DNA of 64,000 nt from Escherichia coli (GTDB lineage: Bacteria > Pseudomonadota > Gammaproteobacteria > Enterobacterales > Enterobacteriaceae), in NCBI RefSeq assembly GCF_003790525.1, contig NZ_CP033635.1. One strand, 5' to 3'. The notes under the pieces were generated by a model that was not told where the DNA came from, did not search any database, and saw only the letters and a program-made list of their open reading frames with translations. A program made the position numbers and the translations under genes. Positions 54,984 through 56,665 of this stretch are shown piece by piece; position 1 is the first letter of the stretch; each line of letters begins with the position of its first letter.

Positions 54984-55280
54984 TCATTCTGAATCTTTGA
55001 ACAAAGACAATCCTTGCGAACGCCGCCATTCTTTGACGATTTTCAGGATGTTTTCAGGTTTACCATCTTCTGGGGAATTAGGATAGAAAATGAGATCTCC
55101 CTTTTTAGGATGTTCAGTAATTTTAATGAAATGATCCACTAAGGTATCGAGATATTTTTCTAATTTTTTCCCTTTTAGGGATTTATCTTTGCTAGTTGCA
55201 TTTACTATCTCCTCAAGCATTTCAAGAAATTCACCTTCTGTGTAAAAATATATTTTGTATTTTAAATCATGCATATACAT
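54984..55280 (-). CDS. Colicin-E9-type DNase immunity protein (Im9-like), copy 3
   Basis: 98 aa; F(Y)TExEFL...HF..ITEHP..GDLIFYP...ENILKIVKEWRRSQGLSLFKDSE; start overlaps the stop of the upstream toxin fragment. Confidence 0.75.
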   Translation of the reverse strand: MYMHDLKYKIYFYTEGEFLEMLEEIVNATSKDKSLKGKKLEKYLDTLVDHFIKITEHPKKGDLIFYPNSPEDGKPENILKIVKEWRRSQGLSLFKDSE

Positions 55281-55327
55281 TATCTCCTGTAGTGAATTTC
55301 ATCATGTAGTCGAGGCGTAACAATCCT

Positions 55328-55516
55328 TTAATTATCAATATCATAAATTTCGCCACCACATTCAATCGCAACACTATGATATATATGGAATTCTTTAACA
55401 ATTTCCTTAGAGCCATAATACCAACCTTCAAGAGGCGCTTTTGCGATTAATCCTTGTTTTATACGTGTTTGGTTACCAGTTGAAAACTGCGCTATCAACT
55501 CCGGATACTGACTCAC
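55328..55516 (-). pseudogene. Orphan HNH DNase toxin tip fragment 2, truncated by a premature TAA
   Basis: GTG-initiated 62-codon ORF (V)SQYPELIAQFSTGNQTRIKQGL...EIYDIDN*; the next frame-continuous codons read RIVTPRLHDEIHYRR*, i.e. the lost end of the HNH motif. Confidence 0.65.
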
Positions 55517-55682
55517 CTCCAGCCAAAGGGTATCGGTGAAAGCGGGAAATTGATAAAATAACCTAATGAGATTTCAGTATTTTACCTGTTTTTTAAGAGC
55601 ACCCACATTATTATTTTATGTTATTAACATCATCGCATTAGCCAGACGCGATGATGTTCCATATATAGTTTTATTATCTACT

Positions 55683-55973
55683 TTATTTAGAGTCTTTAAA
55701 CAAGGGTAGCCCCTGTGAACGCCGCCATTCTTTGACAATTTTCAGGATGTTTTCAGGTTCATCATCTCCCTTCTTTGCAGGATAGTAGATAAGATCGCTC
55801 ATCAACGGATGTTGTGTAATTCTGGTAAGATGTTCTTCTAGATCATCCCAATATTTGTCAAGCTCTTCCCCTTTTAATTGAGCGTTATCCCCGGTTGGAT
55901 TTGTAAACTCGCCAAGCAACTCAATGAATTCCCGCTCTGTGTAATCTTCTATTTTATTTTTAAAATCATACAT
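55683..55973 (-). CDS. Colicin-E9-type DNase immunity protein (Im9-like), copy 2
   Basis: 96 aa MYDFKNKIEDYTEREFIELLGEF...TQHPLMSDLIYYPAKKGDDEPENILKIVKEWRRSQGLPLFKDSK. Confidence 0.75.
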   Translation of the reverse strand: MYDFKNKIEDYTEREFIELLGEFTNPTGDNAQLKGEELDKYWDDLEEHLTRITQHPLMSDLIYYPAKKGDDEPENILKIVKEWRRSQGLPLFKDSK

Positions 55974-56213
55974 TTAACTATCTCCTGTAATAAATTTCAT
56001 CATGCAAATGAGGTGTGCCCTCCTTAAATTATCAATATCGTAAATTCCGCCACTATATTCAATCGCAACACGATGATATATGTGGAATTTTTTAACGATT
56101 TCTTTAGTGCCATAATGCCAACCTTCAAGTGGTGCTTTTGCGATTAATCCTTGTTTTATACGTGTTTGATTACCGCTTGAAAACTGCGCTATCAACTCCG
56201 GATACTGACTCAC
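55974..56213 (-). pseudogene. Orphan HNH DNase toxin tip fragment 1, 3' frameshift
   Basis: 79-codon ORF homologous to the Hcp-ET C-terminus up to DIDNLR, then out of frame (RRAHLICMMKFITGDS); the -1 frame reads ...HLHDEIYYRR*. Confidence 0.65.
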
Positions 56214-56380
56214 CTCCAGCCAAAGGGTATCGGTAAAAGCGGGAAAATGATAAAATAACCTAATGAGGCTTCAGTATTTTTACCTGTTTTTTAAGAGCAA
56301 TCACATTATTATTTTATGTCATTAATATCATCGCATTAGCCAGATGCGATGATGTTCCATATATAGTTTTATTATCTACT

Positions 56381-56665
56381 TTATTTAGAGTCTTTAAACA
56401 AGGGTAACCCCTGTGAACGCCGCCATTCTTTGACAATTTTCAGGATGTTTTCAGGCTTATCATCTCCTTGACTTTTAGGGTAGAAAATGAGATCGCTCCC
56501 TGACGGATGCTGTGTAATTTCAATAAAATGATCTACTAATGAATCCCAGTACATTTCTAGCTCCTTACCTTTTAAGGATTTCCCATCTTTCATAGATGAT
56601 CTCAATCCGCCTAAAAAATTAAGAAATTCATCCTCGGTATAATCCTGGAGCTTTTCTTTAAACAT
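56381..56665 (-). CDS. Cognate DNase immunity protein (Im9-like), copy 1
   Basis: 94 aa MFKEKLQDYTEDEFLNFLGG...ITQHPSGSDLIFYPKSQGDDKPENILKIVKEWRRSQGLPLFKDSK, resembling colicin E9 immunity protein; immediately after the toxin stop. Confidence 0.8.
   Translation of the reverse strand: MFKEKLQDYTEDEFLNFLGGLRSSMKDGKSLKGKELEMYWDSLVDHFIEITQHPSGSDLIFYPKSQGDDKPENILKIVKEWRRSQGLPLFKDSK

Follow-up and report, generated by a model that had tools for sequence, protein, structure and literature searches.

Colicin-type immunity genes of the Escherichia coli usp island form a module array probably reshuffled by recombination in shared DNA

Usp serves widely as a marker of extraintestinal pathogenic Escherichia coli, and is both a deoxyribonuclease (DNase) genotoxin and a type VI secretion system (T6SS)-type effector. 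We analyzed the usp island (PAIusp) contained in a 64,000-nucleotide stretch of E. coli DNA (contig NZ_CP033635.1; hereafter the window), and in particular the three immunity genes, here called imm1, imm2 and imm3 by their order downstream of usp, that lie within positions 54984-56665. The 64-kb window is a 100% match to E. coli SMS-3-5. Comparison with E. coli K-12 and the RefSeq annotation of SMS-3-5 delimit the island, of about 4.1 kb, within the pdhR-aroP intergenic region: homology to the empty K-12 site stops at 54709 and restarts at 58805-58888. The guanine-plus-cytosine (GC) content is 0.41 in the island, 0.32-0.39 in the immunity genes and 0.53-0.55 in the flanking genes. Among 5,426 complete E. 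coli genomes, about 1,055 have the island. Early descriptions of usp and the orfU genes of PAIusp are said to be those of Kurazono in 2000 and Nakano in 2001.

In usp-positive genomes the island has been reported always to lie between aroP and pdhR, with an orfU/imu GC content of 36-38% and a Usp composed of Hcp, S-type pyocin and colicin DNase domains (PMC7142922); usp is followed by orfU1-3, also named imu1-3 (PMC7142922; PMC3685522; PMC3917654). The gene UTI89_C0121 has been named both usp and T6SS effector Hcp-ET3-4, the latter being the effector of Ma 2017 as presented in a review (PMC6730261). The locus in the window shows the features of PAIusp as known from E. coli and Salmonella, namely the aroP-pdhR site, the Usp domain set, a size of about 4 kb, low GC content and two to four orfU/imu genes drawn from the three types, and its three open reading frames (ORFs) are the orfU/imu immunity genes of this known island. 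Nothing essential distinguishes it from the PAIusp described by Zaw 2013 (PMC3685522), Crnigoj 2014 (PMC3917654) and Rihtar 2020 (PMC7142922), with which it shares the insertion site, the Usp domains and immunity types of 98, 97 and 96 aa. [quoted passage not shown]

The usp product has Pfam matches to T6SS_HCP (1e-12), Pyocin_S (4e-40) and Col-Pyo_DNase (1e-41), and its DNase portion matches those of AP41, E9 and E7 (1e-24 to 1e-28). The coordinates of usp and of the other features of the island are collected in Table 1. The first-pass annotation, made from the letters of the window, had proposed that the span 54984-56665 holds three paralogs resembling the colicin immunity protein Im9, and this identification was borne out. 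All three ORFs are intact and complete, with 65% identity among them; they match Pfam family PF01320 (Colicin_Pyocin immunity; best E 8e-30), and a profile built from them matches 28 solved Im chains at 1e-15 to 1e-24. The best of these matches is ImAP41 (1.6e-24), Im7, Im8 and Im9 match at 1e-20 to 1e-23, and the solved relatives in the range 1e-18 to 1e-24 are ImAP41, Im7, Im8, Im9, Im2 and ImS2. An AlphaFold (AF2) model of imm1 computed on 51 homologs, with a predicted local distance difference test (pLDDT) score of 94.1, places helices at residues 11-20, 33-51, 58-61 and 71-84. In a Foldseek search of the PDB, the best match to this model was ImAP41, with a template modeling (TM) score of 0.87 and a root-mean-square deviation (rmsd) of 1.5-1.8 A, then Im7, Im9 and ImS2; the top 40 matches are nearly all Im-family proteins, one of them an Im7 fusion deposited under another title. 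The imm1 protein is predicted by this model to adopt the four-helix Im fold.

The YTExEF motif, also found in Im7, Im9 and ImAP41, is present near the N-terminus of the three proteins, and their C-terminal block, PENILKIVKEWRRSQGL(P/S)LFKDS, is near-invariant, with 22 of the last 24 aligned columns fixed. The helix III hotspot, described as [S/T]DLIYYP (Joshi et al. 2015, PMC4548480), reads SDLIFYP in imm1, SDLIYYP in imm2 and GDLIFYP in imm3, such that its Asp and second Tyr are kept throughout and its first position is Gly in imm3. The column at the start of helix II that aligns to Glu30 of Im2, which forms a salt bridge with the DNase, holds E, D and E in imm1-3, respectively, as placed by alignment only. 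The start of imm3 annotated in RefSeq lies two codons downstream of the first ATG (55275-55280), giving 96 aa instead of 98 aa. The type A protein, to which imm1 belongs, has 94 aa in the window and 97 aa in strain SSGNw1 (locus L003, 4499-4793), where a changed stop codon adds an extension ending in ...KDSKQSR.

The span from 54984 to 56665 also holds two DNase gene fragments and two spacers, which were absent from the first-pass annotation. The true repeat is a module of about 698 bp, present in three tandem direct copies and made up of a DNase 3' part (exosite and HNH motif), an Im-family immunity gene and a hairpin-bearing spacer. Module 1 consists of the end of the intact usp gene and the type A immunity gene, and modules 2 and 3 are orphans with intact type B and type C immunity genes. 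The orphan fragments are homologous to the last ~245 nt of usp, beginning exactly at the WLEVSQ codons, and the 18-nt anchor TGGCTGGAGGTGAGTCAG has precisely three exact occurrences. In both fragments Tyr replaces the first His of the HNH 'HH' pair, a double mutant of which abolished the nuclease activity of Usp (PMC3685522), and the frameshift of fragment 2 falls before the last catalytic histidines. By these lesions, both orphan fragments are inactivated. Upstream of the WLEVSQ anchor (55526-55570 and 56223-56267, minus strand), the orphans encode ...FPAFTDTL in frame where the full-length gene encodes FDEFREAL; this weak likeness suggests that the truncation point may lie slightly further 5', in more diverged sequence.

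The imm1 gene begins 2 nt past the usp stop codon; for both imm2 and imm3 the preceding element is a fragment of the DNase gene. The Shine-Dalgarno sequence AGGAG of each immunity gene lies within the last DNase codons (TAC AGG AGA TAA/TAG; 56666-56680, 55974-55990 and 55281-55295, minus strand), with the immunity ATG 0-5 nt beyond the DNase stop or, for imm3, overlapping it. This placement of the Shine-Dalgarno sequence inside the DNase frame may account for the DNase tail staying with the immunity gene.

Table 1. Features of the usp island in the window, with coordinates in window numbering
Feature	Coordinates	Strand	Description	Basis
usp island (PAIusp)	54710..58804	n/a	~4.1 kb, pdhR-aroP intergenic region	K-12 comparison, RefSeq annotation of SMS-3-5
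usp	56668..58449	-	593 aa; Hcp + Pyocin_S + colicin/pyocin HNH DNase (Hcp-ET3-4 type)	Pfam
usp 3' part homologous to orphan fragments	56668..56913	-	exosite + HNH motif, from WLEVSQ codons	alignments, TGGCTGGAGGTGAGTCAG anchor
imm1, type A (= OrfU2)	56381-56665	-	94 aa; directly after usp; presumed cognate	
41-nt block in imm1	56415..56455	-	PENILKIVKEWRRS codons; putative crossover zone; flanks switch partner	
hairpin, spacer 1	56327..56353	-	10-bp stem, ~30 nt past imm1 stop; also inverted repeat	
orphan DNase fragment 2	55974..56222	-	5'-truncated; 1-bp deletion near 56015-56028; His->Tyr at 56076-56078	
imm2, type B (= OrfU3)	55683-55973	-	96 aa; orphan	
41-nt block in imm2	55717..55757	-	putative crossover zone; flanks switch partner	
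hairpin, spacer 2	55626..55658	-	13-bp stem, z = -3.1	
orphan DNase fragment 3	55281..55525	-	5'-truncated; premature TAA 55328-55330; His->Tyr at 55379-55381	
imm3, type C (= OrfU1)	54984-55280	-	98-aa ORF; orphan here; 'terminal' 3' end version	
41-nt block in imm3	55018..55058	-	sequence beyond is terminal-position specific	
hairpin after last immunity gene	54926..54960	-	12-bp stem, z = -2.9	

To describe how the three genes differ, we took aligned codons 5-73 as the core and adopted the region borders of Joshi et al. 2015 (PMC4548480), in which the stretch that starts in mid-helix I and closes with helix II, loop 1 included, carries specificity, and the conserved hotspot is helix III; residues were placed by alignment to Im9, Im7 and ImAP41. 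In every pair, 32-36 of the 69 core residues differ, with a nonsynonymous rate (dN) of about 0.41, a synonymous rate (dS) of 1.5-1.8 and a dN/dS ratio (omega) of 0.23-0.28. The claim that divergence is not uniform along the gene stands: between imm1 and imm2, 81 of 210 nt differ in the core compared to 11 of 226 downstream (Fisher p = 5e-19). For the last 25 codons of the same pair dS falls to 0.13, from 1.73 in the core, and near-identity extends across the ~150-nt non-coding spacer; the low dS of the 3' block and the near-identical spacer indicate a recent event of recombination or gene conversion. Compared with those of imm1 and imm2, the 3' block of imm3 has a dS of about 1.3, like the core, and a dN of only 0.035-0.05 (omega 0.03-0.04), and therefore appears to be under strong purifying selection on the protein. 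Reading the conserved C-terminus as a footprint of recombination, as the first-pass annotation did, thus fits imm1 and imm2, but the conservation is also the result of protein constraint, visible in imm3 and across genera.

The same annotation had described both ends of the genes as conserved and equated the variable core with the specificity region. The C-terminal block agrees with this description, but the N-terminal end does not, as 9 of its 16 columns vary, with dS of 0.8-3.5, and the YTExEF motif alone is fixed. Variable columns are enriched in the specificity region, in accord with that annotation: they account for 25 of its 36 columns (69%) and for 21 of the 58 outside it (odds ratio of 4.0 with p = 0.003, mapped by alignment). 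The helix III hotspot DLI[F/Y]YP, however, lies inside the core and is conserved. By segment, variable columns make up 86% of loop 3, 36% of loop 2 and helix III, and 8% of helix IV and the C-terminus. A variable specificity region is the general pattern of the family and has been described in near-identical terms (Joshi et al. 2015, PMC4548480). Pairwise dN/dS proved uninformative as a test of positive selection, with core dS at 1.5-1.8 and the helix II segment incalculable; omega exceeds 1 only in the seven-codon loop 3, a segment far too short for this value to carry meaning. Diversifying selection is thus not demonstrated, and is plausible as a historical process. Differences between strains within types B and C are nearly all non-synonymous (type B, 1-3 non-synonymous and 0 synonymous; type C, 0-4 and 0-1), in counts that are tiny, and fall mostly at the N-terminus and in loop 3; for type A, omega between strains is about 0.1-0.2.

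To compare strains, we aligned 17 modules from the window and four further fetched usp loci (L001-L005). Only three immunity types occur in these five loci, A (94-97 aa), B (96 aa) and C (98 aa), which we matched by length and order to OrfU2, OrfU3 and OrfU1 of strain Z42, respectively. They are arranged in four array orders: A-B-C (window), A-B-C-B (sequence type 131, ST131), C-A-B and C-B-C. The order in the window corresponds to orfU2-orfU3-orfU1 and is probably subtype IIb. The stretch that is specific to each type takes in the final ~60-110 nt of the DNase fragment and the immunity gene up to about codon 70, and within it members of one type differ between strains at 1-9 positions in about 210-220 nt. 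The orphan lesions are also identical across the five loci, with the 1-bp deletion before type B, the TAA before type C and His->Tyr in both, and are therefore old and move with the cassette. The fragment preceding type A in SSGNw1, which is annotated as an HNH-motif protein, is intact.

At the downstream border of the type-specific stretch lies a 41-nt invariant block, CCTGAAAACATCCTGAAAAT(T/C)GTCAAAGAATGGCGGCGTTC, which occurs precisely three times in the window and shows 0-1 differences in every module comparison. Downstream of this block the sequence tracks the position of the gene in the array, last or internal, and not its immunity type. Terminal and internal copies of type C differ at 3 of 251 positions before the block and at 103 of 192 after it (p = 2e-42), and terminal type C and terminal type B differ at 82 of 210 positions in the core and at 2 of 192 after the block (p = 9e-25). 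The partner of each sequence thus switches across the 41-nt block, and a crossover zone would therefore lie inside it. The other homology arm consists of the spacer and the first ~140-200 nt of the DNase fragment ahead of each immunity gene, with 92-100% identity between modules; within the window, the first 140 nt of the DNase segment are 92-94% identical (9-11 differences). Only the last ~60-110 nt of each orphan fragment are type-specific, and over the part that codes for the exosite all orphans agree to about 93%. Accordingly delimited, the moving unit appears to be a DNase tail joined to an immunity core. The proposal that homologous recombination at the conserved ends shuffles these modules is supported by the permuted arrays of these five loci, with the correction that the upstream arm is the spacer and DNase fragment and not the N-terminal end of the immunity gene.

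The toxin gene itself shows a comparable organization. Between three strains, the usp bodies show 0-8 differences per 100 nt over the first ~1,500 nt, and then 35 per 100 nt across the exosite. The C-termini of Usp fall into three discrete exosite cassettes, which is the form that a polymorphic toxin should take. Type C follows type I Usp and type A follows the ST131-type Usp, which fits the published linkage of uspI with orfU1 and of uspII with orfU2 (PMC3685522); this linkage and the occurrence of several orfU-order subtypes, both known from PAIusp, hold in the fetched loci. The Usp of the window is a third type, and it departs from the usual PAIusp in being a full-length Usp with an orphan-type exosite: relative to the intact orphan fragment before type A in SSGNw1, its C-terminus differs at 4 of 140 and 0 of 108 nt. 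As a full-length gene this type is found in about 79 of 1,058 usp-positive genomes, counted as single-piece matches at >=99% identity; the 95-99% band was excluded from this count of SMS-3-5-type Usp, since it arises from a usp body joined to the first orphan fragment. Either the window usp acquired an orphan C-terminus or the orphans may descend from such a gene.

Type I Usp (NQNNVSQGYSPY) and ST131 Usp (NQLRISQGFTPF) have the exosite motif, Nxxx(phi)xxGxAP followed by an aromatic residue, in its canonical form. The window Usp (56827-56862, minus strand) and all orphan fragments read NQTRIKQGLTAK at this place, with Pro replaced by Ala and the aromatic residue by Lys; the HNH residues of the full-length window usp are intact. 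The exosite Pro has its anchor in the DNase's hydrophobic core, and in all solved complexes the next residue touches the aromatic residues of the immunity hotspot (Joshi et al. 2015, PMC4548480). The exosite of the window Usp, NQTRIKQGLTAK, without the conserved Pro and aromatic residue, could mean altered or weakened immunity binding.

To place the three genes in a wider family, we searched a protein collection, which returned 463 relatives at E <= 1e-10; an immunity-alignment scan of species-representative genomes had recovered five loci only and missed Salmonella, and the protein search was used instead. The best 120 of the 463 relatives form 33 clusters at 80% identity, spanning E. coli, Salmonella, Superficieibacter and Enterobacter, and across these clusters diversity is 1.39 bits in the specificity region vs 0.40 bits in the C-terminal block. 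The C-terminal block thus appears to be a long-standing protein-level feature of a T6SS-linked Im subfamily. Rare E. coli chimeras between types (A/B, C/A, A/C and C/B), in which the N-terminal portion comes from one type and the C-terminal portion from another, are present among the relatives from the same search (P0001, P0002, P0006-P0008, P0016 and P0020-P0024). Most often the two portions meet within or close to a short stretch that is conserved, around LKGK or around ITQHP, and the A/B chimera P0016 occurs on 18 contigs. Chimeric proteins exist, and exchange would therefore take place inside the core too, at low frequency.

Taken together, these data make it very probable that the usp island is an array of modules in which type-specific Im immunity genes are reshuffled by recombination in shared DNA. 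Each immunity protein would block the Usp DNase by binding its exosite, as Im7, Im9 and ImAP41 do with their own DNases, with the variable helix I-II region setting specificity and the conserved helix III motif DLI(F/Y)YP supplying affinity. The orphan immunity genes would be retained as protection against Usp variants delivered by other strains, type C being the type that adjoins type I Usp. The combination of conserved ends and variable core would then have two causes: a protein-level constraint on helix IV and the C-terminus, general in the T6SS-linked Im subfamily, and homologous recombination or gene conversion in shared DNA. This shared DNA would begin with the 41-nt block in the immunity gene, take in the spacer and reach across the initial two-thirds of the DNase fragment that comes next; crossovers in it would shift type-specific cassettes between array positions and probably also into full-length usp.

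The protein-level part of this explanation is shared by an account in which an old tandem duplication was followed by divergence, with purifying selection on the fold alone and no recombination. Such an account explains why imm3 keeps its protein block despite a dS of about 1.3, and why the C-terminal block and YTExEF are conserved across genera and partly in colicin Im proteins (PMC4548480). It does not explain the drop in dS between the core and the 3' block of imm1 and imm2, an identity that spans ~150 nt of non-coding spacer, 3' ends that track array position and not type, a cassette order permuted between strains or the existence of chimeric proteins. Judged on these patterns, duplication appears already contradicted as the sole explanation, and we consider it highly improbable. 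A second account has the cores diverge in place in an arms race with the Usp exosite, by diversifying selection, which was the other process put forward by the first-pass annotation. The enrichment of variable sites in the specificity region, the hypervariability of the exosite within an otherwise conserved usp and the dozens of core types in related bacteria are in its favor, as is the positive selection reported on Im helix II and the DNase exosite for colicins and pyocins (PMC4548480). However, in the dN/dS comparison that had been suggested as a check, omega is well below 1 in the core and dS is near saturation, such that the pairwise tests are without signal, and the types are so nearly invariant between strains that a few old discrete types fit better than ongoing diversification. 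The low GC content of the immunity genes (0.32-0.39), moreover, fits import from elsewhere. We therefore regard diversification in place as unlikely to be the main cause of the pattern.

A further account questions the specificity of the three genes, which could be redundant against the resident Usp as dose or back-up, or could give protection in a non-canonical way, for instance if one paralog masks DNA. The mode of immunity is indeed disputed, between tight specific binding, redundant neutralization and DNA masking. Imu3 alone protected best and bound DNA and RNA, with no tight Usp-Imu complex, and DNA masking was proposed (PMC3917654); in addition, the helix III hotspot, the source of most of the binding energy, is conserved in imm1-3, and a review of Ma et al. 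2017 relates that all three duplications contribute to neutralization. In contrast, the cores differ at about half of their residues, mostly where specificity resides, each paralog is accompanied by a DNase remnant of its own, as a toxin-immunity pair leaves behind when it is displaced, and the linkage of uspI with orfU1 and of uspII with orfU2 points to type specificity, as does the behavior of the proteins: Usp and OrfU1 formed a tight complex with reduced nuclease activity, and OrfU2 failed to bind UspI with OrfU1 present (PMC3685522). Redundant or non-canonical protection is, on this balance, distinctly unlikely as the general function of the array.

Several points nevertheless weigh against an array of type-specific immunity genes reshuffled by recombination. 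If all three 'duplications' help neutralize the same toxin, as the review of Ma et al. 2017 has it, strict type specificity is called into question. The orphan DNase fragments are ~93% alike whatever immunity type follows, and the cognate toxin of types B and C is therefore no longer recorded in them. The same type A gene, furthermore, stands behind two very different exosites, those of ST131 and of the window. Finally, recombination is deduced from the comparison of five loci and not directly observed.

The nearest parallels to such an array are the orphan toxin C-terminal (CT)/immunity modules of contact-dependent inhibition (CDI), Rhs and Maf systems (PMC3150448, PMC3967940, PMC4436062), in which, like here, 5'-truncated toxin fragments and immunity genes follow a full-length pair, a homology region is common with the full-length gene and strain comparisons indicate exchange. 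Unlike in those systems, the orphans of the window are inactivated and mutually homogenized and offer no alternative toxins, and they are carried by a fusion of Hcp to a colicin-type DNase; colicin loci are described in one review as being without orphan modules. That the usp island is a true orphan-module system of cassette exchange within the colicin-DNase/Im family, with the window usp the product of a toxin switch, is a tentative reading that we hold to be possible but somewhat doubtful. Non-identical immunity paralogs likewise stand beside a polymorphic effector in the T6SS immunity arrays of Vibrio cholerae (PMC5361080) and in the EsaG/TsaI arrays of type VII secretion (T7SS) (PMC9484751), for which these two sources describe effector displacement and homologous recombination between tandem paralogs, in other protein families and secretion systems.

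With the colicin proteins Im2, Im7, Im8 and Im9, imm1-3 share the Pfam family, the four-helix fold, YTExEF and the hotspot [S/T]DLIYYP; in both groups the helix I-II region varies and helix IV is conserved. They differ in a loop 1 that is longer by 7-8 residues, in a C-terminus that reads RRSQGLPLFKDS where colicin Im proteins have AANGKxGFKQG (variable columns, 8% vs 39%) and in being chromosomal, linked to an Hcp fusion and arrayed with DNase remnants, whereas colicin Im genes are linked to a plasmid colicin. The long loop 1, with an LKG(S/K)ELEK motif, is shared with ImAP41 of pyocin AP41 (PDB 4UHP), which in contrast carries an alternate hotspot, with Gly for Asp and His for the second Tyr, where imm1-3 keep the colicin-type Asp and Tyr (PMC4548480). 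It is a possibility that the invariant helix IV and tail serve a second, type-independent role, such as docking to a conserved part of Usp. The module anatomy described here, with three cassettes, dead DNase remnants and defined crossover zones, frames the dispute over the mode of immunity and predicts cognate pairs of Usp and immunity protein.

Each immunity stop codon is followed, ~30 nt downstream, by a hairpin of 10-13 bp. The terminal hairpin is unlike the internal ones in sequence but is built alike, and at one pair or more the change is compensatory (CGC/GCG to CAC/GTG). The U-tract typical of intrinsic terminators is absent after all three hairpins, and scans of the island for intrinsic terminators and promoters gave no more matches than shuffled sequence. 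We do not call the hairpins terminators because the terminator scan missed them and gave no excess over shuffled sequence. An Rfam scan of the island returned two sub-threshold chance matches only. No T6SS structural genes were found within the 64-kb window, the remainder of which is ordinary core genome, and the usp island sits there as a stand-alone Hcp-effector island amid fhuACDB, the yad fimbrial operon, acnB, lpdA, aceEF and aroP.

A related arrangement was seen in Escherichia sp. E1V33 (L006, 5-5291), where a VgrG-Pyocin_S-DNase fusion is followed by five Im paralogs of 91, 108, 85, 75 and 99 aa. A quick look noticed no DNase remnants between these genes, and a 132-aa ORF of unknown family stands among the Im paralogs. 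Four of the five paralogs end in W(R/K)xSQ(G/E/S)LP(L/I)FKD, the 85-aa copy being truncated before that motif.

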